The notes: generated by a model not told the origin, from the letters alone. DNA of 64,000 bases from Takakia lepidozioides (GCA_030704615.1 CM060731.1:7006001-7070000), one strand, 5' to 3'. Positions 2,164 to 41,870 are shown, counted from the stretch's first letter. Program-made: numbers and translations.

Positions 2164-2170
2164 AAATAGC

Positions 2171-2524
2171 TGTGAAGTTAAATAAGCACAGTGTGAAACT
2201 AACTAGAATAAAGCTAGTTATTTATATTTAACACTTGGATTTAGGTCAAGTGTTAAATCAGGTGTCAAGTTTAGTTTGATACCTGAACCGTCTTATCTTC
2301 ACGAGAGCGTCAGTCGCGCAACTCATCTCTCTCGAGTTGAGCCTGTGCGACCGAGCTCCTTCACGCTTTAGAATCTGAGTGTGCTTATGTATGGAGTATA
2401 GGTTGTTGTGGGGTGGAGTCCCCATAGCTTGGGGTGCCCCTGGCTCGACTATTATCTTAAAGAGTGATAGCGATAGATTTCATGTTTCTTGTGTTAAGAG
2501 TGTGTGTCCTTTAGCTTTCTATCA
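2171..2524 (+). repeat. Repeat A1 (5' LTR-like, about 354 bp, TG...CA)
   Basis: About 97% identical to 13732-14086 by eye; homologous to 42717-43066 and 34523-34872. Confidence 0.93.
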
Positions 2525-2538
2525 CTCGAGAGAGATGA
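2524..2538 (+). promoter_or_regulatory. Primer-binding-site position, complementary to the LTR itself (putative self-priming)
   Basis: ACTCGAGAGAGATGA at the A1 3' end is the exact reverse complement of TCATCTCTCTCGAGT (2323-2337). No TGG-starting tRNA PBS. Same arrangement in copy 2. Confidence 0.7.
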
Positions 2539-3462
2539 CTCTATCTAGTTTTCCAGTGCTAAGCTAGATATGATGTTTTTGTTTTTTTAAGCATTATTAT
2601 AATATAGCTTGGTCACGGGGAGCAGAACAGGAAGGCGGAAACCATTCGAAGTGTTGCTGCAGCAGTTCAAAGCCAACAATAATCGGCCCCGGGGATGCCC
2701 GTTTGTTTGAGGCTGGTGGAAGCATTCGCAGGGGTCGCCTACACATTCTCATTTGGAGTGTGCGCTGCAGGTAATCCTGTTGCGGTGGGGTCCCTGGTGT
2801 CAAACCAGGCTGTTACGGTGGTAGGAGGGTCAGCGTGGCCGCGGCGGATGGTTTTGCTGCAGAGCTCGCAATTCCCAAGCGCGGTGGAGCAATATGTTGA
2901 AATTCCAGTAGTGCAAGCGTCATGAATGTGTGTTGCAGGTTGATTGGGTGGTTGATGGACTTGCGCCTCCGTGCAAGAATCTGAGAGAGACACAGATTAC
3001 TTGCCATGGCAGCTACATAAGGGAGAAAGTGACCTCGAGGATGAATATAAGAAGGGATATGCTCTGGAAGTCGCTTTCGCTCCTCAATAATTTCGAACGC
3101 AGAGAGTAGAAACAGCGTGTCATTTTGGTACCCGGCATGAAGACGACAGAGGTCGTGGCTCTGGCCTGACTCCCTACAGTAAGCAGGAAATATATCCTAC
3201 TTACAATCCCGGCAACAAATGGGTAAGAGCTTCGAAGGCTGGCCCAGATCGTTTGAACTTTGGACGGTCTGCAGACATATTTCTTGTTTTCGAGCAATGT
3301 GGCAGACAGCTGCTGTCATTCCAGCTGAGAAGGTGGATGTGATGTCCATGTAAGCATTAGCTATTCACAACCTACAACGTCTTCGTAGTCCACAGTCGAC
3401 TATTTGCCGTTCTCTTTCTGCCGCGGTTGCCAAATTGACCCGGCGATTAGGAGGCTGAAGCT

Positions 3463-3558
3463 ATGGCAGGAGTTGAGACAGGCCATGACGCACCAGCCAT
3501 GGTAGTGTCTGAAGGGAAGACTGTTGCAGTTATCATGGTCGGCGGTCCAACAAAAGGT
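3463..3558 (+). pseudogene. Captured fragment of GDP-mannose pyrophosphorylase alpha/KONJAC-type gene (N-terminus)
   Basis: Translates MAGVETGHDAPAMVVSEGKTVAVIMVGGPTKG; AVIMVGGPTKG is the GMPPA/KJC N-terminal signature. Confidence 0.7.
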
Positions 3559-4214
3559 GATCCAAAATCTCTTTGGTAGGTGGTGTGGAGCCATTCAGGC
3601 TATGAACGTGCGGCTCGAACTTTACGAGCCGATCAATGACCGGGCATGGGGGCTTATTGCACCATTGGGTGTAGATGCTCGGATTCTTGCAAGGACAGGT
3701 AATCGGGGGAGGCGAGAAGGTCGTATGCTTTCTCCACTTTCCCTTGCATCTGGACCCCGGAGGCCATCTCCATAACAAACGCCCTGTCACCTTTTAGGAG
3801 TGCAACTCCATCTTGCGCTGGGTGTAGTAGTTCGATTTTGAGAACTCCAGAGCAAAGCTTGCTGCCATGCTTCGTGACGCCGTGAGTGGGGAGTATAAGA
3901 CCTTGCCTAGAGGGATATTCATTTCCTCAAGTCGCTTCCTGGCATGACACAAGGCTTGCTCTTTGGGCATATCGGTGTCACCATCGAACCTGGTGAGAAT
4001 GTGACAGGGAGTAGCAGACAGGCCTGAGTTCGGGACAATTGGGGTCGAAGTTAGCACCTCACCGAGCGATTTATTGCACCCATGAGCAGGTTGTGTATGG
4101 CTCCTCTTTCGCTCCATCTAGGATGGGTTCCACGCCGAATGCCACTGGTTCAATGCCCTCTGCCCTATCGACCTGACAGGAGGCCAGAGCCTCGTACCTT
4201 CTAATCTCGCTCCT

Positions 4215-4403
4215 ATGAACTTCGTTCCTGCACCTGCGGAAAAGGGTGTCACAGGGTTTATGATCAACTCTCTTATGGGTGGAGTCTTTGCAGCTGTGTC
4301 TCAGACTGCTGCGGCTCCCATCGAGCGAGTGAAGCTTCTCACCCAGAACCAAGATGAAATGCTGAAATCAGGTCGCCTTGCAGAGCAGTTCACCAGTGTT
4401 TGA
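4215..4403 (+). pseudogene. AAC: Captured fragment of mitochondrial ADP/ATP carrier
   Basis: [49 protein letters not shown] matches the first transmembrane repeat of plant AAC; truncated. Confidence 0.9.
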
Positions 4404-4887
4404 AACACCTGTAGGTAAAATCCAGGGAATCTGTGAAAACTACATGGACGTGTTGGGAACTCGTAGGTGACTTGGGAACAGTTTTTGATGGCGAGAACGT
4501 TTTGGGTGTGAAAAATTAAAAGAAATTCGTTCTTTGATCTAATTTAAATTAGATAGAGCCTGTTTGGCCATAACTTTGGCCTACCAAGGCCGTTTGACCC
4601 AAAACTTGCACAGGGACCTACAGAAAGGGGAAATCTACCTATCTAGACCTGGTTTTAGTTTTTTGGACTCTGCTAAAAATCTATGGAATTTTTTGGGTGT
4701 GAGTGTGCTATGAAAGATCCACAATTCTGTTTCTAGAACCTGTTGTGGTCTACATGAGAGACAAATCTGTGGATGTCCTCCTTGTATGGGTGGGGGAAAT
4801 TAGGACGTAATTGAAGGGCGGGTCTCTTCTCTTAGCCTGTGCACCCAAGGGGACAAGATTTATGTTTCCCAAGGAACTCAGATTGAT

Positions 4888-5535
4888 TTGAGTAGAGAAC
4901 AGTTGGACGAGTTGATTGCATTCTGGGATTCAGGCATTAGCAGTAGACAACAAACTGCTGTAGTTGGCGTTGAGGGCCTCAATATTGCTTTGGACAGTCA
5001 AAACTCTGTTGGAGCCAGCAGTTCTGCAGCTGTAGGTGAAATACCAAAGTGGGTGAAAGCTAGGCTTGGAACACAGCCAAAGACAGCCCCGGGGACCAAG
5101 GTGTTCAGCCACAAGGCCGTGGTGTACTGGAGGAGAGGAGCAGGAGCTACACAAGTTTGTGCAATCAGACATGGTTGCAGCCGGAGACGCTCTGCACAAA
5201 GCAACCACGAGCGGGGGTTCATTAGCAATGACAAGTTTGTTCTGCGTGAAGGAGATGCAGTCATTCGCAATGAGGACACCCGCAACCGTCTCAAAGCTTT
5301 CGAGTTGAGAGACTATCAGACCCTACCTTTGTTTTCTTAAGTGTTCAATGAACGGGAGATAGGGGAGTATTGCTTTGTCTCTACCTGGCAGAAAGAGGAG
5401 GAGGGTTGGTTAGAGCGAGCTACTATAGCTTGGGATAAGGTTAGTGGCAGGTTTCTGGACATAGATATACCTCCTACACCTTACCATCATGCAGAGCGAG
5501 GCACTTTGAGAGAAGTCTGGCAGTTGATAGCATAG
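4888..5535 (+). pseudogene. Accessory ORF0 of the Gypsy element (unknown function), internal stop at 5338-5340
   Basis: The homologous ORF is uninterrupted in copy 2 (39857-40504). Confidence 0.65.
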
Positions 5536-6055
5536 ATCAGGATTAGATCTTGCTTGGTCGGGCTTCTATTCTTCCCCTCCCTCTCTTTAATATTTCCATT
5601 ACTTTGTACTTGTAGTTGCCAAAGCCTCTCTTGGTGGAGGCCAGTCAGTCCGGGGTTTTGGGCTGGGATATTCTGCAGGATCAGCATTGCAGATGGATTT
5701 TGGTGTGGGGGTGTTGATGTTTTGATTTCTTGTGTTTGGATCCCCCCCAACACCTACATGCTTGACTGTGCGCCATGTTGGTTTTGTGTGGGCGCTTGCT
5801 TTCATAGGGATTAGGCCGGATTTGATCACCGGTCAATCCTAGGGTATGCTGTCGGTGATGAGGCTGGAGTGATGACCAGCAAGACCACCAGTGTTTCTTC
5901 TATGGTGAGACTAGGTTGATGACCAGCCAACCATAGGAGTTCTTGCGGTGGGTGCAGGTGCAGGTGCCCTGAGCCATTGGGATATGACCCTTAAACTGCA
6001 ACAGGTGCCCACCCGTGTCACTATTAGAATTAGTACTAGAGCCTTATAGTGTCAC

Positions 6056-7700
6056 GTGGGGGAGGTGCACATTGTGAGTGTCATCACGGAGTTACCCAGG
6101 GGTTCTGAGGGGAGTACGGCTACAGGCAGTAGCAGTGAGAGTGGGTTCACCAGACGAGGTGTTCGTTTCAGACCACCTTCACCTCCACCCTCAACTAGTG
6201 CAGAGTCAGACACAGACTCGGAGGCTTCATCAACAGGGTGCAGTTTCATTCGCCATTGTTGTGGGACGACATGGAGGAGATGTATGGAGCTACCAAGGGG
6301 CCTCGTAGGTACTCTAGAGCTATGGGCACAATTGAGCTGGATGACTTTATCTAGGAGTTCGACAGTTGGTGTGATTTGCAGCAGATGCGCAATCCACAAC
6401 TGTTCACCCCATTCATGGCGTGGAAGGGACTGTTCCAGCATTTGGAAGGCCCGCCTATGGATGATTACCACGAGTTCAGGCGAGGACATGAAGCAAAGAT
6501 TGAGGAGTGGAGGATGTATTGGTCACCTGACTATGTCTCCATTACTCGAGGCACGACGCGACCAGTAGCTGCATCAGTACCAATATCTCCCACTGCCAGC
6601 ACTAGTACTGGAACAAGTAGTGCTGGTACTTCGGCAGGTGGTACCACTTCAAAAGGTGCTACTACTCCTCCTGCCACGACTACAACACATGTGCCTAGAT
6701 TCAACCCGGTGGTGGAGTTCTTCCAGGAGTTGCGGAGGAACTACCAAGGTGTACGGACAGAGAAGCTGCGAAGTTTGCAAGACTTCCAGCGCAAACCCAG
6801 TGAGAGCTTGCGAGAGGCCTACACTCGTATGAGGCGCTTGATAAGTGTGACCCAAGGGGTTACTGAAGCTCAGGCAATCCAGTTCTGGTATGGAATTTTG
6901 GACAAGGAGCTCAGGAGAAGGGTGCGGGATGCAACCCTGTTACAAGCAGCCCAACCCACATTAGCAGATGTGTTTCTGCTGGCTGAGCGGATTGAGCTCA
7001 ACATGGTGGAGGAGCGAGTTGTTACCATTGGATTTGGCAAAGACATGCCTGCACGAGGCGCAGCTGCCAGCCCACAGGCACAAGGGACTGCCCAACAGCG
7101 TGGTCAGGGGGGCAAGGTTTCCCAACCCAAGTTCCATGGAGCTTACAGGGGACCTCAGGTGCAGAGGCCCGTGGCATCTTTTGCAGGCCAACAACAACCA
7201 GGGGTGATATGTTGGACATGTGGAGGACCCCATGTCAAGAGAGATTGCCCAGAGAGTGGCAGAAGGCCGACACAAGCACAGCCTGCACAGTTGCAGTGTG
7301 GGCATTGTGGCAAGTATGGGCATGGAGATGCCCAGTGTTATGACTTGCATCTTGAGTTGCGCCCAGGCCAGTTCCAAGGGAACAATGGTGGCCGGGGGCG
7401 AGGTGGACCAGCCCAGAGAGGACGAGGTGGCCGGGCACGAGGTGCAGGCCAAGGGCAAGCTCAACATGGCCAAGGACGCGGAGGTCAGGGTGTTGACCAA
7501 GGCATGGCCAACCGGCTTCAGCAGCTAGAGCAGATGCTCACTGCCATGGCTACAGCTCAGGCGGTACGGCTCCCAGGCGGGATAGTCCACCTCCTGCGCC
7601 TGAGGGAGGAGATATGGGAGGCATGGGATTCATGTGCGGAGCAGCACTACCACTAGTGCAGGTGGAGTCTGCTGCAGCCGTGACTCGAGGAGCAGCACGA
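6056..7700 (+). pseudogene. gag: gag region (retrotransposon gag domain, two CCHC knuckles, RG-rich tail)
   Basis: LQDFQRKPSESLREAYTRMRRL gag motif; CWTCGGPHVKRDC and CGHCGKYGHGDAQC knuckles; frameshifted. Confidence 0.85.
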
Positions 7701-8213
7701 GTTTGAGCCACGAGGTGCAGAGGTGGAATTGAATCCACAGCGTGGGGAGGCAATCCGTTAGGCGAGGCTTCCTCAGTCATTCACATTGGCGGAGACAATG
7801 TCGACGCCATCCATGGCACCTAGTTCTCGCCCGACTGTTACCGAGGCGGAGGTTACTATGCCATTGGGGAGAGCTACACGTGCAGCACTGACACCTGCTA
7901 CCAAGGCTAGTGCAGCCGGTGTGTTGTTGGGGGCAGCCACCTCTGTGTGTCAAGCCCCATTGTTCTCGGCAACCATGATTGCGACGCCGGGGGTAAGACC
8001 AGCTGCAGTGTTCAGACTAGCAGCAACACTCTGTGAGAGTGGGGAGGTCACTTCATCTTCTGCAAGTTACTGGAAGGTGTAGTGGCAAGGGATCCTCGGA
8101 TTTGAGGGTCAAGACTGCCACGGCTGCGCCATGGCAAGCTGCAGCTGCCAGGTTGACGGAGCTGCCAACTAGGCCAACCTTTGAGCGCGCCATGGTGACA
8201 CCCTAGAGTTGTC

Positions 8214-10184
8214 TTGTTAGACAACCAGGATGACATTTACTCTTTGAGTGGACCGGCAGGCAAGAAGTACCGGCCACTGCGGGTCTTGTTGGACTCAGGA
8301 GCTCAGCCACTGATGTTGGGCAGAGCTGCTATTGCAGGTTTGGGCCTCATGGAGGCGGATATGGAGCCTTGTCCTTTCCAGATACAGACATCTCTGGGAG
8401 GATCAGAGCAGGCTCGGGGCATGACACGGCGTGAGTTGGCCATTAGACTGCAGCCGGATCATCCTATAGATGGCTCAGTGATGCGAGCCAAGGCCATTGT
8501 GACAGACGCAATCTCTTACGATGTCCTCGTTGGTGGGGCAGTGTTATATCCCATGGGCTTCACCCTGGACTTTTGGGAAGAGTCAGCATCCTACAGGCCT
8601 GGATGGCAGTTAGGGGATGGTCGTCGTGCACAGCTCCCTGTGACATTCATTGGGGGTATTGCGGCTGCCCAGCGGGGCAAGATGCCAACACTAGCCGCCT
8701 TTACAGGTGTAGTTAGTTGGCCTGGAGAGTTGCTGGTAGGCAATGCCCATGCAAAGGATGTGCCACCTCCAGCAGAGCAGGATGACATGCATGGTACGGC
8801 GGAATTGCCTGCCATGGTTGCTCACACTCCATTGTGGGGTACGGGCAAAGATTTGCAGCAGGCTGCTGATGGACGGGTGCAACAAGCCTGGGTGGACGCT
8901 TTCGTACCGTCAGGAGAGGAGGAGAGTGCGGTGATTGCACCAGGACCACCTCAGTTGTTGCCATTGGACACTACACTTCTTGTGTGGCAGTGCCCGGATG
9001 AAGGCATATGCCTTCTGGACTTGTTTGGCGGGATCAGCATTGGATTGGCTGCAGTACTGCAGGCAGGTGTAAGAGTTCGACGTTACCTATATGTGGAGAG
9101 GGATGAGACTGCAAGACACGTCTCACTGTGCCATGTTGCTCAGTTGGTACAGCAGTACCCTGATTTGTTGCTAGTGTCTGCAGTTCGTGGATACCAACAA
9201 GCCTTGCCAGCAGACATTTCGTTGCTGGGGGCGCAGGATTTGGAGCAGGTTGGCTCCATTGATCTGGTAGTGGCAGGTTGGCCCTGCCAAGGGCATTCAT
9301 CAGCCGGGCATGGCAATGGATTGCGAGACTCAATGACGGGTCTGTTTTGGGAGATGGTGCGGGTTTTGCACCACTTGCAGCTTCATCGAGCTGTATCTCC
9401 AGCATACATCTTGGAGAATGTGCCACTGATGGGTGATTCTCGAGCCAGGGTGATGGCTAGTGTGCATCAAGTCCGGTCGTGGCTTGGGTCAACAATGTTG
9501 CTGGATGCAGCTGCAGTGGGGTCACGGGCTCATCGTCCACGGCTATGGTGGACTAATTTGATGCCACCCGCACTGCTCAAGCGTGCATTTGATGGGGTGC
9601 AGCGGCCAGCACACCTCACAGTGGATAGCATTTTGGACACATGGAGGCAGTCTCAACGTGTGAGACACGATGACCGTTCGCCTTTGGCAGTGGTCAACAG
9701 GGTGGGTCAACCACGAGCAGCATTACCTACACTGCTCAGCTTCCCAGGATCCCATGCTTTTCGGGATGGTGGACCTGGCCTCTTGTGGGATAGCCAGTTG
9801 CAACAATTAGTGGAGCCCAATGCTAACGAGCGCAAGCGGGCAATGGGTTTTACCACTGGTACCACGGCGGTGCCATCTCTTTCTGAGGCATCACGTCGTC
9901 AGGTGTTGGGGCAAGCAATGGATCTCAATTGCTTGACCTGGATTATCAGCTTGGCTATGGCTGAGCAGCGCAGAGTACAAAGTACACTTCCCTTCATGGT
10001 CTCCCTGCCTACCGAGACGGTACAGGCAGCGAGTGGGGGCGAGCAGGTGAGGACCATGAGGTGCAGGCCGCATCCATGGCACACGTGGGGTGCTCGAGGT
10101 TCAGAAGGAGTCGGCAGCCAAGGCGGCGGTGATGGATCAGGTTGGGATTTTCTCGGGTTGAGGAGGTCCTCAAGGATGGGATGA
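8214..10184 (+). CDS. Aspartic protease plus C5 DNA cytosine methyltransferase (DNMT3-like) part of the polyprotein
   Basis: VLLDSGAQ protease motif. DNMT domain about 9004-9960 with motifs I LLDLFGGIS, II YVERD, IV GWPCQGHS (Cys 9285-9287), VI ILENV, VIII AHRPRLWWTN, IX ERKRAMGF, X RRQVLGQAMD, all in one open frame. Confidence 0.93.
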   Translation: MLDNQDDIYSLSGPAGKKYRPLRVLLDSGAQPLMLGRAAIAGLGLMEADMEPCPFQIQTSLGGSEQARGMTRRELAIRLQPDHPIDGSVMRAKAIVTDAISYDVLVGGAVLYPMGFTLDFWEESASYRPGWQLGDGRRAQLPVTFIGGIAAAQRGKMPTLAAFTGVVSWPGELLVGNAHAKDVPPPAEQDDMHGTAELPAMVAHTPLWGTGKDLQQAADGRVQQAWVDAFVPSGEEESAVIAPGPPQLLPLDTTLLVWQCPDEGICLLDLFGGISIGLAAVLQAGVRVRRYLYVERDETARHVSLCHVAQLVQQYPDLLLVSAVRGYQQALPADISLLGAQDLEQVGSIDLVVAGWPCQGHSSAGHGNGLRDSMTGLFWEMVRVLHHLQLHRAVSPAYILENVPLMGDSRARVMASVHQVRSWLGSTMLLDAAAVGSRAHRPRLWWTNLMPPALLKRAFDGVQRPAHLTVDSILDTWRQSQRVRHDDRSPLAVVNRVGQPRAALPTLLSFPGSHAFRDGGPGLLWDSQLQQLVEPNANERKRAMGFTTGTTAVPSLSEASRRQVLGQAMDLNCLTWIISLAMAEQRRVQSTLPFMVSLPTETVQAASGGEQVRTMRCRPHPWHTWGARGSEGVGSQGGGDGSGWDFLGLRRSSRMG

Positions 10185-10379
10185 TGGGGCAGGGTGAGAC
10201 ATTGTCACTGACAGAGGAGGCAGTGGTCACTGCTCAAGAGGTTGCCGCATAGCAACCACGGGACGCGTCTTCTACCTCTAAGCCTGCTGGACTCAAGGTT
10301 GCAGTCACGGAGGACAACTGGGAGCCTGATGTTGGACCTATAGTCACCGGAGGAGAGAGACGACGTATACGGCGGTTCT

Positions 10380-13065
10380 TGAGGGCTTACAGGAACTGCT
10401 TTGCCTTCAGTTTGAAGGACTTAGGAGCACTGAAGGGTCAAGAGATTCGCATTGAATTGGCTACTGACACGCCAATCTTTCGGAGACCCTATAGATACAG
10501 TGACATGGAGAGGTCCTTGATTCAGATGAGAACTCACGACCTTTAGGAGGCTGGTTTGGTGGAGCTATCTGGGGAGAGTATGCTTCAGCCACAGTGATGC
10601 CAGCCAAGAAGGATGTCTATGGCAATTGGACGGAGAGACGTATGTGCGGTGATTACCGGCCTGTAAATCGTCAGACCAAGTCCGATAGGTATGCCATGCC
10701 GACACCAGAGGAGATCTTTGATGCCATTGGGCATGCCAAGGTCTTTAGCACGTTGGATTTACGATCCGGATATCACTAGTTGCCGATCAAGGAGGCGGAT
10801 AAGCAGAAGACGACATTCTGGGGGATCAATGAGCACGGGAAGGATGGCCTATACCAGTGGCGGTTCTTACCATTTGGGCTTAAGAACGCTCCTGCTGAGT
10901 TTCAAAGAGTCATGGACAGGATTCTAGCAGGGGTGGAGTTTGCTCGGTGCTACATAGATGACATCATCATCTTTAGTGCTACGGTGGAAGAGCATGAGAG
11001 ACACCTTCAGGGGGTATTTGAGCGCTTGAGGGCGCACGGATTGAAGTTACATCCGGGGAAGTGCAAGTTTTTCCACAACCAGATTGAGTATCTGGGTCAC
11101 ATGATATATCCTGGAGGATTAGGGGTACAGCAGACTAAGGTAGAGTCCATTGCACAGGTTCCACGCCCCACAGATGTGAGCCGAGTTCGAGCTTTCATGG
11201 GGTTAGCAAACTATTATAGACGGTTTGTTAAGGGATTTAGTGCCATTGCAAAGGCTCTAACCAAGCTGACCAAGGTGGACCAGGAGTGGCAGTGGGAAGA
11301 TGAGCAAGAACAAGCTTTTCAAGAGCTCAAGGCGAGGTTGACCTCGGCGCCCATCTTGAGACGACCTATCAGGGGGCGTCGTTTTCAGCTGCATACAGAT
11401 TGGAGCATGCTGGGGCTTGGAGCGGTGCTCACACAGGTGGATGATGAGGGAAGAGAGTTCGTAGTGGCTTATGCTAGCCGCTCGAACAACGCTGCAGAGT
11501 CTAAGTATAGCTCATATGAAGGAGAATGCTTAGCTGCAGTGTGGGCCGTGGCACACTTCAGGTGCTATCTATACGGCAATCTCTTCACCCTTGTCACGGA
11601 TCACCAACCACTCAAGTGGTTGATGGAGTCAGACAAGCTTACGGGGAAGCTTGCACGGTGGGCACTCATCCTTCAAGAGTATGACTTTCAGGTTGTGCAT
11701 CGACCGGGTTTGGTCAATCGCAATGCAGATGGGTTGAGTCGCAATCCATGCACGAGCCAGCAGGATGACACTGGAGCTCGGTGGCATGGTGAGACGGATG
11801 AGGAGATGGTGCCCGGATGGCATGCATCTGCATTTCTGTGTATCTTGGCAGCGGAAGGCCAGGTTGGACCTGCAACAGGGATGACTGTAGATCAAGTGTC
11901 TGAGGACCCTGAGGCCAGCAATGAGCAAGGTGGCGCCAAATATATACATGAGGATTCAGTTGTGTTGGACTATCTTCGCACTGGAGACACGGCAGCCACT
12001 GTGACTGCCAAGGAGAGGGATCGGATCCTACAACAAGCCAAGAGGTTCAAGTGGGAGGGGACACACCTGCTCCGAGTGTGGGAGGATGGTCGAGTGAGGA
12101 TTGTGCCTCACCCAACACAGCGGGCACGGTTAGTGCGGCATGCCCATGAGGAGTTGGGGCATTTTGGGGTGCGACGCACTCATAGTCTACTGCAGGGGCA
12201 GTATTGGTGGCGTGGTATGCACACAGAGGTGCAACAATTTGTGGCTAGGTGCATGGTGTGTGACAGGGTGCGTGCTTCATTCAACGCCCCTACTCCACAA
12301 TTGCACCCTCTTCCGATCATGGGATTGGGCTACAGGTGGAGTCTTGACTTCCTAGGGCCGTTGCCACTGACCATGCGCCACAACAAGTACGTGTTGGTGA
12401 TGGTGGAGCACTTCTCCAAGTGGATTGAGTTGGTTCCATTGCCTGATAAGGCTAGTGAGGGAGCTGCGTATGCATTCTTGGATTGTGTGCTTAGCCGATT
12501 CGGTGCTCCAGCTGAGGTACTCACGGACCAAGGGAGAAAGTTCTTGGGGGAGTTTCAGGCTTTGTGTGACAAGGCCTTGATAGACCACCGCACCACTTCT
12601 CGGGATCATCCTGAGGCCGATGGCTTGGCAGAGAGAGTTGTTCAAACAGTAAAGAGGGGTTTGCGCAAGTATGGCTTGCAGAAGGGACACCTAGGAGATT
12701 GGGACCTTCAGTTACCCTGGTTAGCCATGGGCTACAGGTTCAGCAAGCAAGCATCACTTGCCTCCTTCTCACCATACTTTCTTCTCTTTGGCCGAGAGCC
12801 GGATTTGCCTACATCCATTTGCAGAGAAGCTGCTACAGTTCTTAACCTTGACGATCCGGACGTGTGGGCACGTGCATGTGAGCAGCGTGCAGAGTTGTTC
12901 AAGAAAGTCATGCCCATGGCTTTCGAGAACCTTGCCATTGCACAACACCGTGATACGTTGAGGTATGCTACCATACGTGGTGGGGGCTATCGTCCTGGGG
13001 TTCGGAGATTCAACCCTGGTGACTATGTCTATCTGCAGCAACTGCTCCTACGACCTTGGATGTGA
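10380..13065 (+). pseudogene. pol: pol: reverse transcriptase, RNase H, integrase (HHCC + DDE)
   Basis: RMCGDYRPVN, LDLRSGYH, LPFGLKNAP, YIDD (10951), LHTDWS and VTDHQPL (RNase H), HEELGH...CMVC, WSLDF, LTDQG, GLAERVVQ. Stops near 10546 and 10777. Confidence 0.95.
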
Positions 13066-13385
13066 CTGCAGGACGTGTTATTTTGAGGGTTCGAGAGGTC
13101 TTGCCCTCAGGCGTCTTGGTCTTGGAGGGTCGGGATGGCATAACTTGGAAGGACCATGTGCGTAATTGTGTGCCATGTCACCTTCCGAATGTCGATGGCA
13201 GGATTGACCCAAACCTGGCAGTGGTATCTGCAAGTTTGAGGTGCATGTTGTGTGGGTCTGCTAGAGGGGCAGCCACCATGCTGGTGTGTGATCGATGCTC
13301 TAGAGGTTGGCATATGGGATGCTTGACTCCACCTCTTGAGATGGTTCCGGATGGGGATTGGTTATGTCCACATTGCATTGGATAG
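13056..13385 (+). CDS. Integrase C-terminal extension with PHD finger (frameshifted from pol near 13040)
   Basis: CMLC...LVCDRCSRGWHMGCLTPPLEMVPDGDWLCPHC is a canonical C4HC3 PHD. Copy 2 reads through this junction (QQTAPTTLDVT). Confidence 0.9.
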   Translation: MDVTAGRVILRVREVLPSGVLVLEGRDGITWKDHVRNCVPCHLPNVDGRIDPNLAVVSASLRCMLCGSARGAATMLVCDRCSRGWHMGCLTPPLEMVPDGDWLCPHCIG

Positions 13386-13633
13386 TGGGAGTGGATACAA
13401 CCATGGAAGGCTAACAAGCAACGCAAGGCCCAGCTATAGGAGACCTTGAATACACGAGGTCCTGGCTCAAGTTCACAGATTGCAAGACGGCGACTAACGA
13501 TGGGGCTACTCTTGTACCCGGCCTCTTGGTCAATAGAGTTTGAGTACAATAGGGACAGTGATAGAGGACTTAGTACGGCTGTGGCTATTACATCTTGTAG
13601 CTATCTGGAGTTAGAGGGACCTATCCACCAGCT

Positions 13634-13644
13634 AGGGGGGCGAT
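13634..13644 (+). promoter_or_regulatory. Polypurine tract abutting repeat B1
   Basis: AGGGGGGCGAT directly before TGTGGCAGAC; same in copy 2 (34960-34970, -). Confidence 0.7.
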
Positions 13645-14172
13645 TGTGGCAGACTACTTTATTGTGCATATATGTGTGGTGTGGTTTGGACATCGATGTA
13701 GTTGTGTAGCGATACGTATGCGCACGACAGCTGTCAAGTTAAATAAGCACAGTGTGAAACTAACTAGAATAAAGCTAGTTATTTGTATTTAACACTTGGA
13801 TTTAGGTCAAGTGTTAAATCAGGTGTCAAGTTTAGTTTGACACCTGAACCGTCTTATCTTCACGAGAGCGTCAGTCACGCAGCTCATCTCTCTCGAGTTG
13901 AGCCTGCGTGACCGAGCTCCTTCACGCTTTAGAATCTGAGTGTGCTTATGTAGGGAGTATAGGTTGTTGTGGGGTGGAGTCCCCATAGCTTGGGGTGCCC
14001 CTGGCTCGACTATTATCTTAAAGAGTGATAGCGATGGATTTCATGTTTCTTGTGTTAAGAGTGTGTGTCCTTTAGCTTTCTATCTATTGTGGCAGACTAC
14101 TTTATTGTGCATATATGTGTGGTGTGGTTTGGACAGCGATGTAGTTGTGTAGCGATACGTATGCGCACAACA
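13645..14172 (+). repeat. 3' terminal block B1 (13645-13729) - GC - A2 (13732-14086) - T - B2 (14088-14172)
   Basis: 85-bp B repeats (TG...CA) flank A2; the B1/A2 junction is the palindrome GACAGCTGTC. Confidence 0.93.
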
Positions 14173-14449
14173 TAGCCCCAACTGGTTTGATTCATTCTGA
14201 GCCTGCATGTTTGAATGACAAGCTGCCTCTTGAATCTGAAGGTACTGGTGCCTTGACATCCCCTCTTACCAGTAACTTGCAGTTGAGAGAGAGAGATGTT
14301 CCTTGTAGTCCTAGTCTTGAGAAGGGAAAGTGTGTTGTTGTGGAGGACTCTGAACCTGGTTTGAGGCCTTCATTGAATTTCCAAAATGTTGGGCTCTCTC
14401 ATGTGCCTGTAAAGAGAGTACATGCAGCTAGCTTATCTACTGGAAGGTC

Positions 14450-14821
14450 TATCGAGCGGCTTTTACTCACCCATCCCTTTGCTATCCGAGGTGGGAACTC
14501 CAAGATAGAAGAGTTGGAAATCTCTAAGCACTTAGCCGGCTCAGAACAATCAGTCATGACCTACAGCTAGTGTATCATGTGGGTGTTTCCTATTTGTACT
14601 CCTTCCCACATTCATGTTAGCGAGTTACCTTACTATCTGCAATTAAGTACCAGTTTGCTTCAGAATTCTATCAAGTTCCATCCATTCATTCCACAATTTC
14701 ACTCAGGTCTCTCTACACAGTGTGAGTATGAAGTATGTATCAGATTAATATCTATCAAGTATCAAGCTGAAGCCATGGTGTCTCTAATCTACTCTACATT
14801 ACAATTCTACAGCTTGCATTC
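14450..14821 (-). mobile_element. Partial, diverged LTR of the Tat/Ogre-like family, interrupted by the MULE-like element end
   Basis: Homologous to 60419-60790 and to the reverse complement of 28550-28924. Confidence 0.8.
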
Positions 14822-15286
14822 ATGGGGGCTGCTATTTCATGAGCCATGAGCCATGAGCGGCATGAGCCATGAGCATAGTCGTAAGTGTGGAAAAAAACAT
14901 GAGCAGCACTATTTTCCGGAAATGAGTGTCCGCGGGAATAGGGTTTAGGGTGCAACGGTCATAGGGGGAGAAGGACCTCCCGATGAAGGAGGTTCGGCAA
15001 TGTTATTTAGAATTATATATTGAAAGGCAATGTTTCGCGAATGGTAGGGTGGTACTGCTCTGTACAATGGGGGCCCATTTCAGCCTACCAGCCACTTGCA
15101 AAATCCACCCACACTCCCAATCCCAAACGACATGAGCAATGACGCATTCTGGGAACGATGGACACAGAATAGAATAAAAAGAGGGCACAATGAGGTTTTT
15201 ATTGATCCACATGAATTGCATTTGAAGCACGTCTACTGTGCTGATTGTGCAATCAAATCTTTAGCCCTGTGCCTACTGAATACAAG

Positions 15287-15850
15287 TCACGTTGTCAATG
15301 GGACTTCGACTGCTCTCAGAACTAGCTCATGAGTCATGGGGCTCCTCCAGGTAAAGTCGATTGCAGCCGTTGTACCGCCCCTAGTGATGTTCACCACAAT
15401 GTCCTGCCCTTCAATCATACCACCATCGAATATGGAAATCTTCACGTTTTCGTCATCCACACCAATGCGAATGTCCCCATACAATGGAGAAGAGGAGCGC
15501 ACTCCTTGAGGAGAATAGGTCTCTCCGATGGAGTCCACCCACGTCCAGTGGCAGCAGTTCCACCGCAACAGCATAGCAGTGCGCCTTCTTCTGCATGGGT
15601 GACCGTCGTAGCTGGGAAAATCGGAATCGAGGATGCGCAGGAGCCACGGACTCCTCAAACCAAGATCGTCACCCCGCTCGAAGGCGTAGTGGCCTAGGAT
15701 ATACTCAAAAGCCACCAATGTTTCCACAATCGAACCAGTATCTTCTCTGTAATCTGTGTACCAGATAACAATGTCTCCCGATGTGGCCGAATACATTGCA
15801 TAATCGATGCCTCCAAATGGGCAGTCGTCCCGGTTCCGGAAGCACGGCAT
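15287..15850 (-). CDS. Unknown protein of about 187 aa, paralog 1 (MPCxRNxxDCP...YGDIR...DGGxIxGxDIVV...ELVLR)
   Basis: Open frame; aligns along its full length with the divergently oriented paralog at 16405-16982. Confidence 0.7.
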   Translation of the reverse strand: MPCFRNRDDCPFGGIDYAMYSATSGDIVIWYTDYREDTGSIVETLVAFEYILGHYAFERGDDLGLRSPWLLRILDSDFPSYDGHPCRRRRTAMLLRWNCCHWTWVDSIGETYSPQGVRSSSPLYGDIRIGVDDENVKISIFDGGMIEGQDIVVNITRGGTTAAIDFTWRSPMTHELVLRAVEVPLTT

Positions 15851-16404
15851 CCTTGCAAAGGAGGACCTGAGGACGACTTGGATGCAGATGACAATGACCT
15901 TGCGGATAGCTACGAAGCCCTTAGATTTTGGAAATGATGCGAAGCGGAAGAGCAGTCCGGCCTCCAATAATGGAGCATCTGGGTCCCACGTACCCACCGA
16001 CGGAGGTGGAACGTGTTCATCACGCCGGCGGTGGATGAACCCATACATCTTTCTCATCAACAAGTTATAGTTTGAGATCTGCCACCAAAGTCCATCCCCC
16101 GGATGGAAATTCGGCGCCGCATTTACATCGAAGAGGGGATGGACTTCGTCGTGTCCAGTGGCTATCGGCCCACCTGGCAGTGAGTGCCCATAGTTTGCAT
16201 GGCAGGGTAGGAAACTGATACGGCTACATTCATGAAGCAGCCAATCTTCATCGGTCCAGGATCCTGTAGGGGGAAATTTAAATGTGCCCTGGAGTGTTTG
16301 TGAGGAATTGCAGCGTTAGCTTGAACTTTTTCCAGCCACCGCGCTGCTCCTCCTCCATCCGGGAGCTGCTGTCATTGAGCGTACTCCGCTACTCTTTTTC
16401 AAGG

Positions 16405-16982
16405 ATGCCGTGCCGCCGAAATCCAGCCGACTGCCCTTATCATGGCCACGATTATGCTATGTTCAAACCAGAATCAGGAGACATCATTGTCTGGCTCTCT
16501 GTTTTCACAGACGCTTCTGGAATCAAGCAAGAGTCTTTGCGCGCAATGGAGTATCTGGAGGGCTATTACCGCTTTGAGCGAGGTGAGGGCGAGGGTCAAT
16601 GCGGTCCGTGGGTCCTGAAAATTGTTGACCTCGATATACCAAGCTGGAAAGGGATGCCGGACAGATCACGCACGGCCTCGCTTTGGCGCTGGAACTACTG
16701 CCAGTGGACCAGGGAGGACGGCACCAGGGAAAACTATATACGTGCAGATCACTCCGCTCTTCCAGTGTATGGAGACATTCGGCTGAGTTGCGAAGACGAA
16801 TCGCACGGGCACATGAGGCCCACAGTGACCTTGCAATGTATGATGGTGGTATCATTGATGGACATGACATTGTCGTCGGCTCCAGCAAGGGTAGCAGAAC
16901 GACCGAATTGCAATTTACCTCGAGGTGCCGCAGCAGTGATGAGCTTGTTTTGAGGGGTATCGAAGTTCCGTCGACTTGGTGA
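16405..16982 (+). pseudogene. Unknown protein paralog 2 (one frameshift near 16800)
   Basis: MPCRRNPADCPYHGHDYAMF...RTASLWRWNYCQWT...YGDIR, then in another frame YDGGIIDGHDIVV...ELVLRGIEVPSTW. Confidence 0.7.
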
Positions 16983-17237
16983 AGCCCATGTAGAAGGAGG
17001 AAGGGCTTAGTTTTGTCTGCAGTTGGTAAATGTGAGACATCGTGTCCGATCAATAAACCCATCGTACCTCAATTCTGTATGATTGTGTTTCATTCTGTTG
17101 AATAACTGTCAGAATTGGCCCACTGTTTACAATTTGATGTCTCATTTCTACAATGTGTCTGTCCGGATGAATATAGCAGAGTAACCGGTATGTGAGTCAT
17201 GTGTCAAGAATATACCAGAGTAACGCCATGTCGGACA

Positions 17238-18010
17238 TTGAAATGCGGCACCGCATTTCCATGTGGGACAAGGAAATGCGGTGCCGAATTTCCATGCCGA
17301 CATGGAAATGTATGAACCGCATTTCAGTGTCGGACAATGAAATGCGGTGCATCATTTCCGTCCAGGTACACGAAATACCAACACGGGTCTATAAATTGGA
17401 CAGACAACGAGGTTGGCATTGCAAATGCGGCGACGCATTTCCAGCTTGGCAATGGAAACTTCTTTTTGGACAAGGGAATGCGGTGCCGCATTTCCGTCCA
17501 ACAATTCGAAAAGTGTGACATTTCCGACCAGCGCGATGGAATGCGTTACCGCATTTCCGTGAGAGGGTCTGCAAATGGACAAATTGCGATGTCCGTTCTG
17601 GAAATGCGGCGCCGCATTTCCATGTCCGTCATCGACTTTTTTTTTACAATGGAATGCGGTGCCAATTTTTGCTGATGGGCCTGCAATTCGAACAACGACC
17701 ATCCCCAATATGGAAATGCGGCACCGCATTTTCAATTCCGCCATCTCGACCTCCTTGTTCGACCTCCTTGTTCGACCTCTGTAAGCGTGGAGGCATCCAT
17801 GCAATGAGCGGGAGAGGCCAAACTGGCGTGTGGACAAAGGAAATTTTGGAAATGGGGCACCGCATTTCCAATCGGCCGATTACTTTTTACTATGCCAACA
17901 TTGAAATGGAAAATTTAGTCCCTCCCCTGTTTTGGAAATGCGGTGCCGCATTTCCAAAAGAGGTTCTTAGAGTTGCCAAAATTTTGGAAATGCGATGCCC
18001 CATTTCTGAT
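17238..18010. repeat. Dispersed array of about 13 copies of palindrome GGAAATGCGGYRCCGCATTTCC
   Basis: Visible directly; spacers are non-identical. Confidence 0.9.
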
Positions 18011-18143
18011 TTTGGGAGCGTCGTGGTTTGGGCGATTGTGTGGCTGGAATGCACACTGGAGAGGGGTCACGAATGTCGGACAGAATTTCCTTTATATACT
18101 CTGGAAGAGAATTTACATTTACAGAGACTTCATTAAAATTCTA

Positions 18144-21100
18144 TTAATCTTGAAAATCATCCGAATCCTCATCCTGTTCTAGACTGTCCTGCTCCGCCTC
18201 CACCCCCTCAGTGTCTTTCTCATCTCCAGCGGACTGCTCGTTGGCCAGGCTTTCGAAAATCCCATCTTCCCCTTGCGGAACTGTCCATCTCACCTCCGTT
18301 GGGTCGTCTTCCTCCCTGTCTGCGTCGCTCTCATCCGTTGAATCACATATGTACTTTCGTACCCGTCTACCTGTCTGAGCTGCTGCCAACTCTTTCCTTA
18401 TCCTTCTGTCCTCCCTAGCCCTCTCCAAAATCTGCTCTACTTTACTGGGATTCTCACTTCTTCTAATCGCTGTATTTGCGAGTTTAGCTGCATAACTAGG
18501 AAGGGAGTAGTCCCTCACCGGGCTCGTCATGAATCGGCCCTCGCAAAGAATGGGACATTCTTCCTGGCAGGAAGTGTAGGCCCTACATGTTTCGACCCGG
18601 ACCCTGCAATCCTGCACATGACAATCATCAACGAGACTAATGAGAACCACAGTCGGGAAATTCGTTTGACAAAAATGACCCAGAATGCTTTGCAAACTTA
18701 CAATGTTTGCACTCACTCGTATTCCGGGTTCTCCTCCGCATCAATGTCCACTGTGTCTTCCTCGGACTCCGACGAATCCGAGGAGACTTCCGCTCTGTCG
18801 GGAGCCTTAACATTCCGTTGCAGCCCTTCCAGATGGGATCCCCACACGGATGAATCCTCCTCGTAGGCAAAGAGGTGCCGGTCGGAAAACCGCCCAGCCC
18901 ACATTGAGGCACCTGTTACAATGCCATCCACACATTACCACATGGCGCTTCAGATGTTGCGAACTACATCCTAACGAGAATTTGCAGAACAGCATAGATC
19001 AAGATTCTGCATACCTGTCCCACAGATGAGGTCGAGCACTGTGCCCTCCACGTCTGTGCATGTCTCCATAATTGTCTGAATGAAGGCAGGGCTCCGAGTC
19101 CGTGAGTACCGCAGGGGTTCCGTTGAAGTGAGGCTATGAGGGAGAAGTTCCTTGGGAACGTTGTTGAACAGAACGTCGTAATCGAGGGGGTCGCAGTTCG
19201 GGTCAACCTTTCCTCCCTCCTTCCGGAAAGCAAAGGTGGAGTTCTCCTTCACAAAGCAGTATGCATCGAACTGCTTCGTCTGCATACACAGGGGGAACGA
19301 TTAGAAACCGAATGCGGCACCGCATTTGAAAACACCCAAGCAAATGAATGGACGAGTGCCAGTGTCGTAATCACCTTCTTCCCTTCCGACCGAAGGCCCA
19401 GTGTGTTGATGCACGTCCACTTCTTTTTTCAGAATCGGGACGGCGCTCTTGCGGGTCCACTTCGCAATTCCTGTCTGAGTGTTTTTTCCTCTGCTCGCCA
19501 GGACAACCACACAGCCTCTGTCGTCCAACACCATGCGGGCAAGCCTGAATCCTTTCTTCCAAAAGTCCTCCGAGTACCTGTTCCAAGATGGCAAAGCTTG
19601 CAGTCCTTCCACAGGCTCTCCGTCCGGAATATCCAAGATGATCATATCGCAAGACCACTCGGTGGCATTTCCGCCCCTCCTACAATCTTTTTCTGCACAC
19701 ACCCTCTCAAAGAACGAGACCATATTCTGAAATCCTGGGGTGTCGGAAGGCTCTTCGGCAGTCGCCTTCTTCAGTGCTCTGCCCTTCAGACCCTCCATGG
19801 TCTTCATGTATGCCAACTTGGCTGCCCGTCCATCCAAAGCCGCCAAGAAACTCTCATTTACACACTGGACTACTGTTTCGGGAGCCACTTTCGGCCTCTC
19901 TTCATTTCCACCGGCTCGAAAGGGTGCCCCCCTGGGGGGTTAAGAGTGCCTTCTTTGCCGAGCCAGTTCTCGTGCCTCTCGTGACAACGGTGGGCACAGG
20001 GGAGGCAGCCTGCGTTTGGGGGGGGTGGGCTGGTTGCAAAGTCTCCATCGGAGTCCTCTTCCTCACCCTCTTCCTGAACAGGCTGTTTCTGCTTCTTCGT
20101 TTTGGCGGGTGTCACAACAGCTGCTCCTTGCTGGCGAGTCCTCTTCTTCGACCCTTCTGTTGGGCCTGCACAGCTGCATCCACCGTCTTTTGTGCCATCT
20201 CAGCTGCCTTTCTGGATTCTTCCAGAGCAGCAGATTCCTTTGCCGACTTTGGCCAGCAGGGACACGTCTTTCCTTTCTCTTCTCTTCTGCCAAGGCGTGC
20301 AGATCTTTCTCAGACTCGTCAACAATACCGCCAGACATGTCCAGGTACCACGGGCATCCAACGAGATGCGCGGGATGCCATTGTTTCTGCATCTCGGGTG
20401 TGTAGACACAGCTTGGGCCCGCCACGGTCCAAGCCATGAAGAACGGGGGCTCTTGAGCCAGGGCCCCTGTCTGAAGGAGCACGTATTTCATATACCTGCA
20501 AGGCAGTCAGCATGCGTGAGCAAAAGTGAGACCAACCTACTCGCAGAGTGCCACCGAAAACATAAAATGCGAATGCGGTGCCGCATTTCCGAGACAAACC
20601 TCGTAACCAGGCTTCGCATACAAGGGCAGCTGTGCTTCACCTGTAAACAATTCGCATTGCAGCTTTCCCCCTCCCTCCTGATGTGTAAACTCCACGCTCC
20701 TTCTTGCTGTCTGTAGCTCTCTGGCGAAAAGGTTGTCCTTGTACGCACATCTGAAACGTGTCACGTAGTCTTCCAATGTCTGTGTTCCATCCCATTTGAC
20801 GTACAAGCCGAACGAATTTGTGTGCATTACGACTTGCTCCTTCGCATTCGACATTACCTGCGATTCCCAAATGCATTGTCACGTAGCAGTTCAGGGAATT
20901 CATTTCAGAAAAGCAAATCTGGGGAAGTACCTTGAATTACCTGGAACCACCAAGTCATACGGTTGAGCCACACATCCACTGCAGGGTCGGAAACTTCCAG
21001 TGGAAAAGACCACATTGTCCTTATGCTCTCGGATGCATTCCAGATCGACAGCCACCGTGTCTGCCATTTCCGATCCAATGTCAGGAGCTGGAAGAGAGTG

Positions 21101-23271: not shown

Positions 23272-23703
23272 TGGCCTACGTCCGAAGTATAATTTCCGGA
23301 GCTTGCGACGAGGTCTCCTGTCTGGTGCACGAACTCCCCCCTCTCAGGTTCGAGCATAAGAAGAACAGAGAGAGGGAAAAGGGGCAAAGAGTGCAGATGG
23401 AAAGGGCGCGAGAGGGGTGACTGAGGAGACACGACAAAAGTAGATGAAACGGCGGTGATGCACCACTTGGGTTCGAAAGGGTTGGACGAAAGTGTCTCCT
23501 CGTGGAGTTTGCGTCATTACGAAATTCGAATCGTTCAGGGTACGCCTGCCGTCCGAAAAACAAACATCATTATCCAACGGTCAGGCCGCGCCGCCTCATG
23601 CCCCTTCAGTCAGATAGAGTGCCGACATGTGCAGCAATTCCGTTGCTCCACGTGTTCACATTTCAAGGCATTTCCGTCCCAGCGTCTGATGAGTTGGAGT
23701 GAA

Positions 23704-25050: not shown

Positions 25051-25956
25051 NNNNNNNNNNNNNNNNNNNNNNNNNNNNNNNNNNNNNNNNNNNNNNNNNN
25101 NNNNNNNNNNNNNNNNNNNNNNNNNNNNNNNNNNNNNNNNNNNNNNNNNNNNNNNNNNNNNNNNNNNNNNNNNNNNNNNNNNNNNNNNNNNNNNNNNNNN
25201 NNNNNNNNNNNNNNNNNNNNNNNNNNNNNNNNNNNNNNNNNNNNNNNNNNNNNNNNNNNNNNNNNNNNNNNNNNNNNNNNNNNNNNNNNNNNNNNNNNNN
25301 NNNNNNNNNNNNNNNNNNNNNNNNNNNNNNNNNNNNNNNNNNNNNNNNNNNNNNNNNNNNNNNNNNNNNNNNNNNNNNNNNNNNNNNNNNNNNNNNNNNN
25401 NNNNNNNNNNNNNNNNNNNNNNNNNNNNNNNNNNNNNNNNNNNNNNNNNNNNNNNNNNNNNNNNNNNNNNNNNNNNNNNNNNNNNNNNNNNNNNNNNNNN
25501 NNNNNNNNNNNNNNNNNNNNNNNNNNNNNNNNNNNNNNNNNNNNNNNNNNATCCATCCTCCGGGGGAACAACCTTAGGCCTAGTCTTCGCCATCCGCAAC
25601 GAGCACACGACGCCGAAATACACAAAAGAAAAAGCAAGGAACAGAAGCCAAAGAAAACAAGGAAGAGCACACGGATTGCAACGAACAAAAGGAAACACAA
25701 GGCATAGACATCAAAGAGGATATGAGAAGAGCAGCTGAAAAACAACAACGAAGAGCCGCCACCGAAGAGTCGCTTCACGAGGAAGACATTCCAAACGTGC
25801 AATGTACCTAGGGGACCGGGCACGTGGGGGAGCAGGGGATCAGTCGATGGACATGTGGCGATAGCACCAGACTGGGGATCACTGATGCTGAGATCTGGGC
25901 GGTCATGAGGGGGAGCAGGCATGGGAGATGTGAAGGGGGAGCGAACCCCTAGGCAG

Positions 25957-41781: not shown

Positions 41782-41870
41782 ATTTTGCTGGCGGGACATT
41801 TCAAGGGGAAGTGTGTCGTCTTTCTGAAGCAGGTGGAATCTGGCCTTCTTCTGGTTAAAGGCACTTTCCA
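41782..41870 (+). pseudogene. RPL6: Captured 60S ribosomal protein L6 (eL6) fragment
   Basis: ILLAGHFKGKCVVFLKQVESGLLLVKGTF matches the eL6 KOW region. Confidence 0.82.

Follow-up and report, generated by a model that had tools for sequence, protein, structure and literature searches.

A decayed Gypsy-DNMT3 retrotransposon with a DNMT3-like methyltransferase and a PHD finger in Takakia lepidozioides

Background

Retrotransposons that encode a cytosine methyltransferase within Pol were described by de Mendoza et al. 2018 (PMC5890265; our statements about this paper refer to its main text). KnitGypsy-Dnmt3 of the alga Klebsormidium nitens combines the domains of a Gypsy element with a DNMT3-related domain in Pol, has repeats "the same as that of a DIRS retrotransposon" and shows a Ka/Ks (ratio of nonsynonymous to synonymous substitution rates) of <0.2. 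SymbioDIRS-Dnmt3 is found in Symbiodinium, K. nitens having fewer copies than that organism, and the DNMTs of these retrotransposons were proposed to methylate their own cDNA. Here we describe 64,000 nucleotides of Takakia lepidozioides DNA (GCA_030704615.1 CM060731.1:7006001-7070000; this whole stretch is called the window), in which one related retrotransposon of about 12 kb, copy 1, occupies positions 2171-14172 on the plus strand.

Judged from its sequence, copy 1 is of the Gypsy-DNMT3 (KnitGypsy-Dnmt3) kind, which it extends to land plants. It resembles KnitGypsy-Dnmt3 in i) the Gypsy domain set, with an unrearranged DNMT3-related domain in Pol between the protease and the reverse transcriptase (RT), ii) A-coding-B-A-B repeats, iii) conserved catalytic residues, iv) purifying selection, and v) identities of 43-54% per domain. 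It differs in that its host is a land plant, its enzyme falls in a separate bryophyte clade and its copy number is very high; the K. nitens protein examined (n=1) ends before the PHD region.

Why a transposon should carry an enzyme that normally silences transposons has been an open question since 2018, and the only host described for the Gypsy form in the printed texts cited here is an alga. The words PHD, Marchantia and Physcomitrella do not occur in the main text of PMC5890265, and the phrase "streptophytes (Gypsy-DNMT3)" stands in passages of a 2026 bioRxiv preprint and of a 2025 paper in Molecular Biology and Evolution. Our literature search, which did not extend to the 2018 and 2025 supplements, where trees may show bryophytes, turned up no bryophyte or other land plant from which a Gypsy-DNMT3 element has been reported. 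The same search found nothing on six Marchantia gene identifiers and no description of a conserved PHD tail, of two enzyme positions in Pol, or of DIRS-like repeats together with a DDE integrase and target duplications.

Results and discussion

Organization of copy 1

Copy 1 is one Ty3/gypsy-type retrotransposon bounded by a 4-bp target duplication, and its parts were defined by a stop-to-stop map of open reading frames (ORFs), by Pfam and by tblastn of full-length relatives (Table 1). Its domains lie in the order Gag, protease, DNMT3-like C5 methyltransferase, RT, RNase H, integrase and PHD finger, and the Ty3/gypsy Pol set is complete, comprising protease, RT, RNase H and an integrase with H2C2 and rve parts. 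A conserved DNMT3-type enzyme is thus encoded by Pol itself. Protease and methyltransferase share one stop-free ORF of 661 aa (8199-10184). By tblastn, the Gag region through 8064 matches residues 1-563 of the Marchantia protein P0087, and relatives of the protease carry the source name "Retropepsins domain".

Table 1. Coordinates of the features of copy 1 and of the second copy (copy 2) in the window
Feature	Position	Strand	Remarks
Target-site duplication, left	2167-2170	+	TAGC; same 4 bases after right end
Left terminal repeat A1	2171-2523	+	Starts TGTG (TGTC in copy 2); high-copy in DNA runs
Leader common to copy 2	2524-2613	+	Aligned with copy 2 through 2613
Variable low-copy leader	2614-4469	+	1856 nt; host-transcript-like pieces
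Family-specific conserved leader	4470-6270	+	95% identity to copy 2; high-copy; contains ORF 4804-5337
Gag	6271-7653	+	CCHC knuckle at 7297-7338; weak Pfam Retrotrans_gag match
Protease region	8199-8945	+	Retropepsin-type LLDSGA at 8286-8303; open frame same as methyltransferase
Methyltransferase domain	9000-9962	+	Pfam DNA_methylase E 3.3e-11; motifs I-X intact
Motif I	9021-9038		LFGGIS
Motif IV	9276-9299		GWPCQGHS
Motif VI	9408-9425		ILENVP
Motif VIII	9528-9560		AHRPRLWWTNL
Motif IX	9828-9851		ERKRAMGF
Motif X	9903-9923		VLGQAMD
Reverse transcriptase	10310-11106	+	Pfam RVT_1 E 1.3e-24; YIDD at 10951-10962; split over two frames; stop at 10777
RNase H	11293-11682	+	Pfam RT_RNaseH 1.5e-35, RT_RNaseH_2 8.9e-33
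DDE integrase (H2C2 zinc domain, rve core, C-terminal part)	12112-13050	+	Integrase_H2C2 2.5e-16, rve 1e-13; HHCC motif at 12145-12261
PHD finger (C4HC3)	13242-13376	+	Pfam PHD E 1.4e-11; integrase tail
Polypurine-like tract	13630-13642	+	AGCTAGGGGGGCG; abuts B1; same tract before B1 in L053/L057
Repeat B1	13643-13729	+	87 nt; ends GACA; 97.7% identity to B2
Inner junction B1/A2	13726-13735	+	GACAGCTGTC; perfect 10-bp palindrome
Repeat A2	13732-14084	+	From self-comparison
Repeat B2, right end of element	14086-14172	+	Ends ..GCACAACA; from self-comparison
Target-site duplication, right	14173-14176	+	TAGC; read from sequence
Copy 2, same family	34437-43066	-	Self-BLAST 95.8% and 95.7% identity; own target-site duplication AGGG/AGGG
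Variable leader of copy 2	40783-42633	-	1851 nt

The methyltransferase domain

The catalytic motifs of the methyltransferase are all intact, namely PCQ (motif IV), ENV (motif VI) and HRPR (motif VIII). When the METHYLTRANSFERASE was compared with PDB by phmmer, 29 of the 31 distinct sequences matched at E<=0.01 were DNMT3A, DNMT3B or DNMT3C, with DNMT3A the best at 8.7e-9; the other two, 4onj and 4onq, are labelled only "DNA methyltransferase", and we take them to be tobacco DRM. A profile built from 24 family sequences and run against solved structures gave the same picture, with DNMT3A at 1.5e-21, DNMT3C at 2e-19, DNMT3B at 8e-19 and 4onj at 3e-10, followed more weakly by HaeIII (5e-7), DRM2 (5e-7), DNMT2 (3e-6) and HhaI (6e-6); DNMT1 was not among the 53 matches listed for this profile. 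The AlphaFold (AF2) model of the domain reached a predicted local distance difference test score (pLDDT) of 85.4 and a predicted template modelling score (pTM) of 0.87, and with this model Foldseek returned DNMT3A/B/C in 34 of the 34 matches listed (best E 2.5e-16, target TM-score about 0.8, about 20% identity). The description "DNMT3-like" is therefore supported by similarity of sequence and of predicted fold, and membership of the element enzymes in the DNMT3 clade rests on the 2018 tree for their K. nitens relatives (PMC5890265).

The host enzymes DNMT3A, 3B and 3C are thus the best matches in both respects and share the canonical motif order with the element enzyme. They differ from it in the low identity of the structural alignment, in having adjoining PWWP/ADD domains, and, for DNMT3A, in having PCN where the window has PCQ. 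Beside the window enzyme neither PWWP nor ADD was found, DNA_methylase being the only domain in the 661-aa ORF at Pfam E<=0.01.

A first-pass annotation of this DNA, made from the sequence alone, had read the locus as a polyprotein with a DNMT3-like writer and a PHD reader, and had taken AHRPRLWWTNL and ERKRAMGF...RRQVLGQ for motifs VIII-X. Both the domain content and the motif assignments hold. It had also placed a full C5 methyltransferase in frame after the protease and before RT, and had the integrase end in a PHD finger instead of a chromodomain. The intact motifs, the common frame with the protease and the PHD ending are borne out, but the frame changes between methyltransferase and RT, and in copy 1 the PHD finger is not in the frame of the integrase.

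Selective constraint

In an alignment of 74 sequences, the residues of motifs IV, VI, VIII, IX and X were kept in 80-95% or more of the rows. Inside the methyltransferase domain, the window sequence differs from the 80% majority at two positions; beyond these, it differs only in the last 7 residues of the domain, where the model is poor. Against 27 loci with a finite rate of synonymous substitution (dS), the window gave nonsynonymous rates (dN) of 0.22-0.49, dS values above 2.2, which are saturated, and ratios of 0.05-0.20; dS was not computable for 19 further loci. These values suggest that the methyltransferase is under purifying selection across the family, with the saturation of dS to be kept in mind. 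Neutral evolution of the enzyme, named in the first-pass annotation as a finding that would overturn its reading, is not what the family shows, as the conserved catalytic motifs and the low ratios indicate.

Median identity to 53 near loci was 64% for the methyltransferase and 71% for the PHD finger, to be compared with 51% for Gag, 45% for the protease, 71% for RT and 75% each for RNase H and integrase. Since the values of the two extra domains are near those of RT and integrase, both evolve in the manner of the core domains of Pol.

The PHD finger

The window PHD finger has its full set of eight zinc ligands, and all eight are conserved in 50 aligned sequences drawn from both architectures described below, as is the motif CD.C..G[WY]H..C..PP. 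The nearest solved fingers are those of CHD4, PHF12, KDM5B and KDM5A (PHD1), ATXR5, PHF21A, DPF3, BAZ2A/B, UHRF1 and AIRE, which are presumably readers of the unmodified H3 tail or of unmethylated H3K4. The finger follows the C-terminal module of the integrase, the place where chromoviruses carry their chromodomain. The two groups are alike in having a chromatin-reader module at the integrase C-terminus, proposed as a guide of integration, and passages of PMC6673714 discuss PHD fingers and chromodomains of retrotransposons as targeting modules. They are unlike in the kind of module: that of the window is a PHD finger, and no chromodomain family was detected in the element at Pfam E<=0.01.

Family members and two architectures

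A near-length protein search gave 86 relatives with up to 61% identity over the whole ORF, the named sources being Marchantia polymorpha, Calypogeia fissa and Sphagnum species. In a longer-length search, for which the methyltransferase region served as query, 46 relatives were recovered, including i) Marchantia proteins with up to 71% identity, ii) K. nitens KFL_009030040 (44%, E 1.1e-51), iii) a 3225-aa "pol" of Scenedesmus sp. PABB004, and iv) many metagenome polyproteins; among the rve-bearing relatives of this search, 23 of 26 have a PHD finger. Vascular plants were absent from the named matches of both protein searches. An exhaustive search of 1.84 billion representatives yielded 3371 clusters at E<=1e-3, of which 816 passed E<=1e-10 and 251 passed E<=1e-30, and 10 representative matches consist of one named protein (Calypogeia) and metagenome proteins. 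The protein atlas gave no more than "Eukaryota, Streptophyta". These matches point to a large bryophyte family with members in Marchantia, Calypogeia and Sphagnum. The first-pass statement that such enzymes are not a standard feature of land-plant elements with long terminal repeats (LTRs) hence needs a qualifier, given the size of the family in bryophytes and its very high copy number in the source organism. Its suggestion of a link to Klebsormidium elements has proved sound, KFL_009030040 being related in methyltransferase (44%), RT (43%), RNase H (54%) and integrase (54%).

The order Gag, protease, methyltransferase, RT, RNase H, integrase, PHD was found in all of 80 metagenome loci (39-67% identity), as far as their contigs reach; integrase and PHD finger occur together in 27 of these loci and integrase without a PHD match in 8. 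An order that recurs in 80 of 80 loci is far beyond chance. Among the first 132 proteins, two forms could be distinguished. In form 1 the methyltransferase lies between protease and RT, as in the window, Marchantia, Sphagnum, Calypogeia and Klebsormidium. In form 2, comprising 26 proteins (within P0103-P0130), with many from metagenomes and one from Scenedesmus sp. PABB004 (P0107), it lies between RNase H and integrase. Form 2 of the Scenedesmus type is like the window element in having a related methyltransferase (35-43% identity), RT, integrase and PHD finger, and unlike it in the position of the methyltransferase.

A single branch (SH-aLRT 99) separates form 2 from all other sequences both in the methyltransferase tree (74 rows) and in the RT-RNase H tree (34 rows), the same subclades recur in the two trees, and a quick tree from a rerun with 42 rows showed the same split. 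Klebsormidium stands on the same side of the main split as the window in both trees. The window enzyme belongs to a well-supported set of 24 that includes the bryophyte sequences, and within this set the window enzyme is sister to the other 23. The RT of copy 1 shares 81% identity with a Marchantia protein. As the trees are unrooted, one capture followed by a move would fit them as well as two captures.

Decay of copy 1 and traces of methylation

In copy 1 the reading frame shifts four times, at about 8064-8202, somewhere in 10088-10310, and at about 10570 and 13040, and stops lie at 7654, 7681 and 7759 in the gag-protease linker and at 10777 in RT; as a result, RT is out of frame with the methyltransferase and the PHD finger lies in a different frame from the integrase. 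With these frame changes and stops, copy 1 is dead. Many other copies in the DNA runs from this organism are one or two bases longer or shorter near several of the frame-change sites, and at 7759 nearly all other copies read another base, so the lesions are private to copy 1 or to a subset of copies and are not features of the family.

The private changes of copy 1 are mostly of the C-to-T or G-to-A type: the window has A/T where other copies have G/C at 227 places, and the reverse at 145. By context, the 12 best-supported private changes fall into 3 CG, 7 CHG and 2 CHH sites. The ratio of observed to expected CpG is 0.49 in the element (4471-14172) vs 0.77 in the flank (14173-24000), and 132 of the 183 substitutions between copy 1 and copy 2 are transitions. 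The C-to-T/G-to-A bias and the preference for CG and CHG show that the copies are methylated, by whichever enzyme, that of the element or that of the host.

Role of the two extra domains

Copy 1 is a decayed Gypsy-DNMT3 copy. On balance, and with moderate confidence, we favour the reading that the enzyme of this family methylates the cDNA or the fresh insertion of its own element and that the PHD finger guides integration. In active relatives the methyltransferase would be made within Gag-Pol, and its packaging in the particle is hence predicted; inside the particle it would probably methylate the new double-stranded cDNA, or it would act on the element just after integration. The first-pass annotation had likewise proposed packaging, methylation of the cDNA or of a circle, and integration steered by the PHD finger. 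The PHD finger would tether the integrase to chromatin without H3K4 methylation, and new copies would then land away from active promoters. Both the methylation step and PHD-guided integration are inferences.

Several findings weigh against this explanation. Copy 1 itself is a dead copy, and so, it appears, are most of its relatives, as 44 of 46 metagenome copies with a long methyltransferase match carry 1-12 stops and only 2 of 46 are stop-free. The dN/dS ratio among close copies is 0.55-0.85; this is the decay expected after insertion, so that selection becomes visible only between lineages. The loop between the first two ligand pairs of the PHD finger is non-acidic in the bryophyte clade. 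Finally, the isolated K. nitens Gypsy-DNMT3 domain gave no methylation in yeast, a result that its authors did not regard as decisive because human DNMT3B failed there too (PMC5890265).

Of the other explanations, the one with an appreciable, if clearly smaller, chance of being right is that the methyltransferase acts after integration, or in trans on integrated copies of the family or on host DNA. Its role would then be self-restraint of copy number or a methylation pattern resembling that of host genes. Once translated and cut out by the protease, the enzyme would also exist free in the cell, the copy number of the family in the source organism is very high, and the substitution bias, its CG/CHG contexts and the CpG deficit described above mean that something has methylated the copies. 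However, host enzymes alone would produce the same pattern of decay, and our data do not separate the contribution of the element from that of the host; moreover, the methylation of the Klebsormidium copies, in CHG and CHH contexts, is of the type usual for silencing by the host (PMC5890265).

We think it unlikely that the PHD finger is not a histone reader and serves integrase folding, multimerisation, nuclear import or the binding of some other host factor. The fingers of the bryophyte clade do lack the acidic residues seen in this loop in many members of the other lineage, which would suit such a role. Yet the finger sits at the integrase tail, such modules of retrotransposons are discussed as targeting devices (passages of PMC6673714), the nearest solved fingers are all chromatin-associated, and the finger is about as conserved as the integrase by median identity.

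Less probable still is that the methyltransferase domain is kept for C5 methylation of the genomic RNA, or for non-catalytic binding of DNA or RT. The negative yeast assay would fit this, and RNA methylation was raised by the authors of PMC5890265 for a DNMT borne by a LINE (long interspersed nuclear element). A purely structural role, though, would not need the Cys motif, ENV and the Arg motif, which are conserved in at least 80-95% of the 74 sequences, and by sequence and fold the nearest enzymes act on DNA (DNMT3), with the E-value of DNMT2 about 15 orders of magnitude worse.

That the methyltransferase is a nested insertion, which the first-pass annotation had named as a finding that would refute it, a one-copy capture of a host gene or an assembly chimera is rejected as next to impossible: although both copies in the window did capture pieces of host mRNA, these lie in the leader and not in pol, a single open frame runs from the protease into the methyltransferase, the enzyme has the same position in the 80 loci and in Marchantia and Klebsormidium proteins, DNA depth is continuous and high across 4466-14300, and the methyltransferase and RT trees share their major split and subclades.

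Terminal repeats and integration

The repeats of copy 1 are laid out as A1-coding-B1-A2-B2, which is DIRS-like, and the same layout was found in copy 2 and in a related insertion present in two metagenomes (L053/L057). A1 and A2 are 97.45% identical over 353 nt in the self-comparison, with a Kimura two-parameter distance of 0.026, compared with 0.045 for the A repeats of copy 2, which are the more diverged. L053/L057 has TGTC...GACA ends and the target duplication CATA/CATA, so that all three independent insertions (with TAGC in copy 1 and AGGG in copy 2) have 4-bp duplications. These duplications, together with the TGTC...GACA ends, indicate insertion by the DDE integrase, and no tyrosine recombinase (Phage_integrase) was found by Pfam in the element ORFs scanned.

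The split direct repeats of DIRS, Ngaro and PAT elements share the layout A1 ... B1 A2 B2 with the window element, which differs from them in its TG..CA-type ends, 4-bp duplications and DDE integrase. SymbioDIRS-Dnmt3, as described in the main text of PMC5890265, likewise has A-coding-B-A-B repeats and a DNMT3-type domain in Pol, but is a tyrosine-recombinase (DIRS) element, whereas the window element has a DDE integrase and 4-bp duplications.

The inner junction GACAGCTGTC consists of the right end of the element, GC and the left end; it is kept in copy 2 and has one change in L057. Junctions of retroviral two-LTR circles resemble a palindrome of this type, and integrase can cut them in vitro. 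No TGG-type primer site adjoins A1, and no tRNA-type site was recognised in the leader at 2524-2613; nor does the window contain a tRNA gene, or its positions 1-24000 any Rfam family. The route by which A-coding-B-A-B repeats are regenerated in replication is left unexplained by the explanation that we favour.

Copy 2 and the leader regions

Copy 2 lacks the stretch that matches 9458-12667 of copy 1. Through this internal deletion of 3.2 kb the methyltransferase has lost its C-terminal half, RT and RNase H are gone, and little of the integrase is left.

The variable leaders of the two copies occupy the same place in the element but are mutually unrelated. That of copy 1 holds an exon-like piece of an ADP/ATP carrier at 4122-4386 (Pfam Mito_carr E 2.7e-5), and that of copy 2 holds a sense piece of ribosomal protein L15e (Ribosomal_L15e 5.8e-43) and an antisense piece of L18A (Ribosomal_L18A 7.8e-16). 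We considered whether the carrier piece belongs to a carrier gene; a search of the window for the exon that follows in the mRNA found none, and the piece is regarded as a fragment. Contigs of run X7, a presumed RNA run, match separate pieces of the leader and diverge at each end, other copies differ in this interval, and the depth of the variable leader is far below the 1e4-1e6 seen on either side. The leader pieces look like the products of template switching onto cellular RNAs during reverse transcription.

The conserved leader contains an ORF (4804-5337) of 178 aa, the counterpart of which in copy 2 (39860-40663) has 268 aa. Pfam matched neither of them, no relatives were found among the 80 loci and the first 132 proteins, and the ORF may be a lineage-specific accessory ORF, or nothing.

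Abundance and neighbouring sequence

In run X1, summed contig depth was 1.5e5 to 1.3e6 over 4466-14300, vs 185-660 over 2720-4419 in the variable leader. The element family is clearly highly repeated in the source organism, where it ranks among the sequences with the most repeats, depth not being equal to copy number. A 5-kb contig from a run under another species label is about 96% identical to 8695-13649.

An intact intronless cytochrome P450 ORF (31142-32779, minus strand, 546 aa; Pfam 1e-97) separates copy 1 from copy 2. It is CYP77-like by its matches, all of which are from land plants, the best being one of 47% identity from Diphasiastrum. By these matches the host is a land plant missing from the protein database, and the relatives of the element suggest a bryophyte. 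The Gag of another Ty3-type retrotransposon is encoded at 58252-59460 on the minus strand (Retrotrans_gag 3.8e-13, Ty3_capsid 1.1e-7). An unrelated 370-nt repeat is present in three copies of about 82% identity (14457-14819, 28550-28917 and 60421-60790), the first of which starts 285 nt past the right end of copy 1. Two runs of 500 N (25051-25550 and 56451-56950) are assembly gaps or masked sequence.

Conclusions

The locus is ordinary, and the family to which it belongs is moderately interesting. A wider proposal, which we regard as speculative and probably wrong in at least some of its parts, is that the family is an ancient green-lineage Ty3/gypsy clade with a complete reader-writer module, made up of a DNMT3-type enzyme and a PHD finger of the unmethylated-H3K4 type, and that this clade has grown to very high copy number in a land plant. 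It would land in H3K4-unmethylated chromatin, methylate itself on arrival, be opened via a circle-like or tandem intermediate at the GACAGCTGTC junction, which the genomic copies retain internally, and take fragments of abundant host mRNAs into its leader. If this is true, the reader-writer module mirrors the ADD-plus-catalytic logic of host DNMT3, spread over Pol.

The PHD tail, the two positions of the enzyme and the combination of DIRS-like repeats, a DDE integrase and target duplications bear on the modularity of retrotransposon Pol. In the genetic model Marchantia polymorpha, many loci listed as encoding hypothetical proteins belong to the family, which makes its function testable in a tractable land plant and raises the question of what such elements may contribute to bryophyte methylomes.

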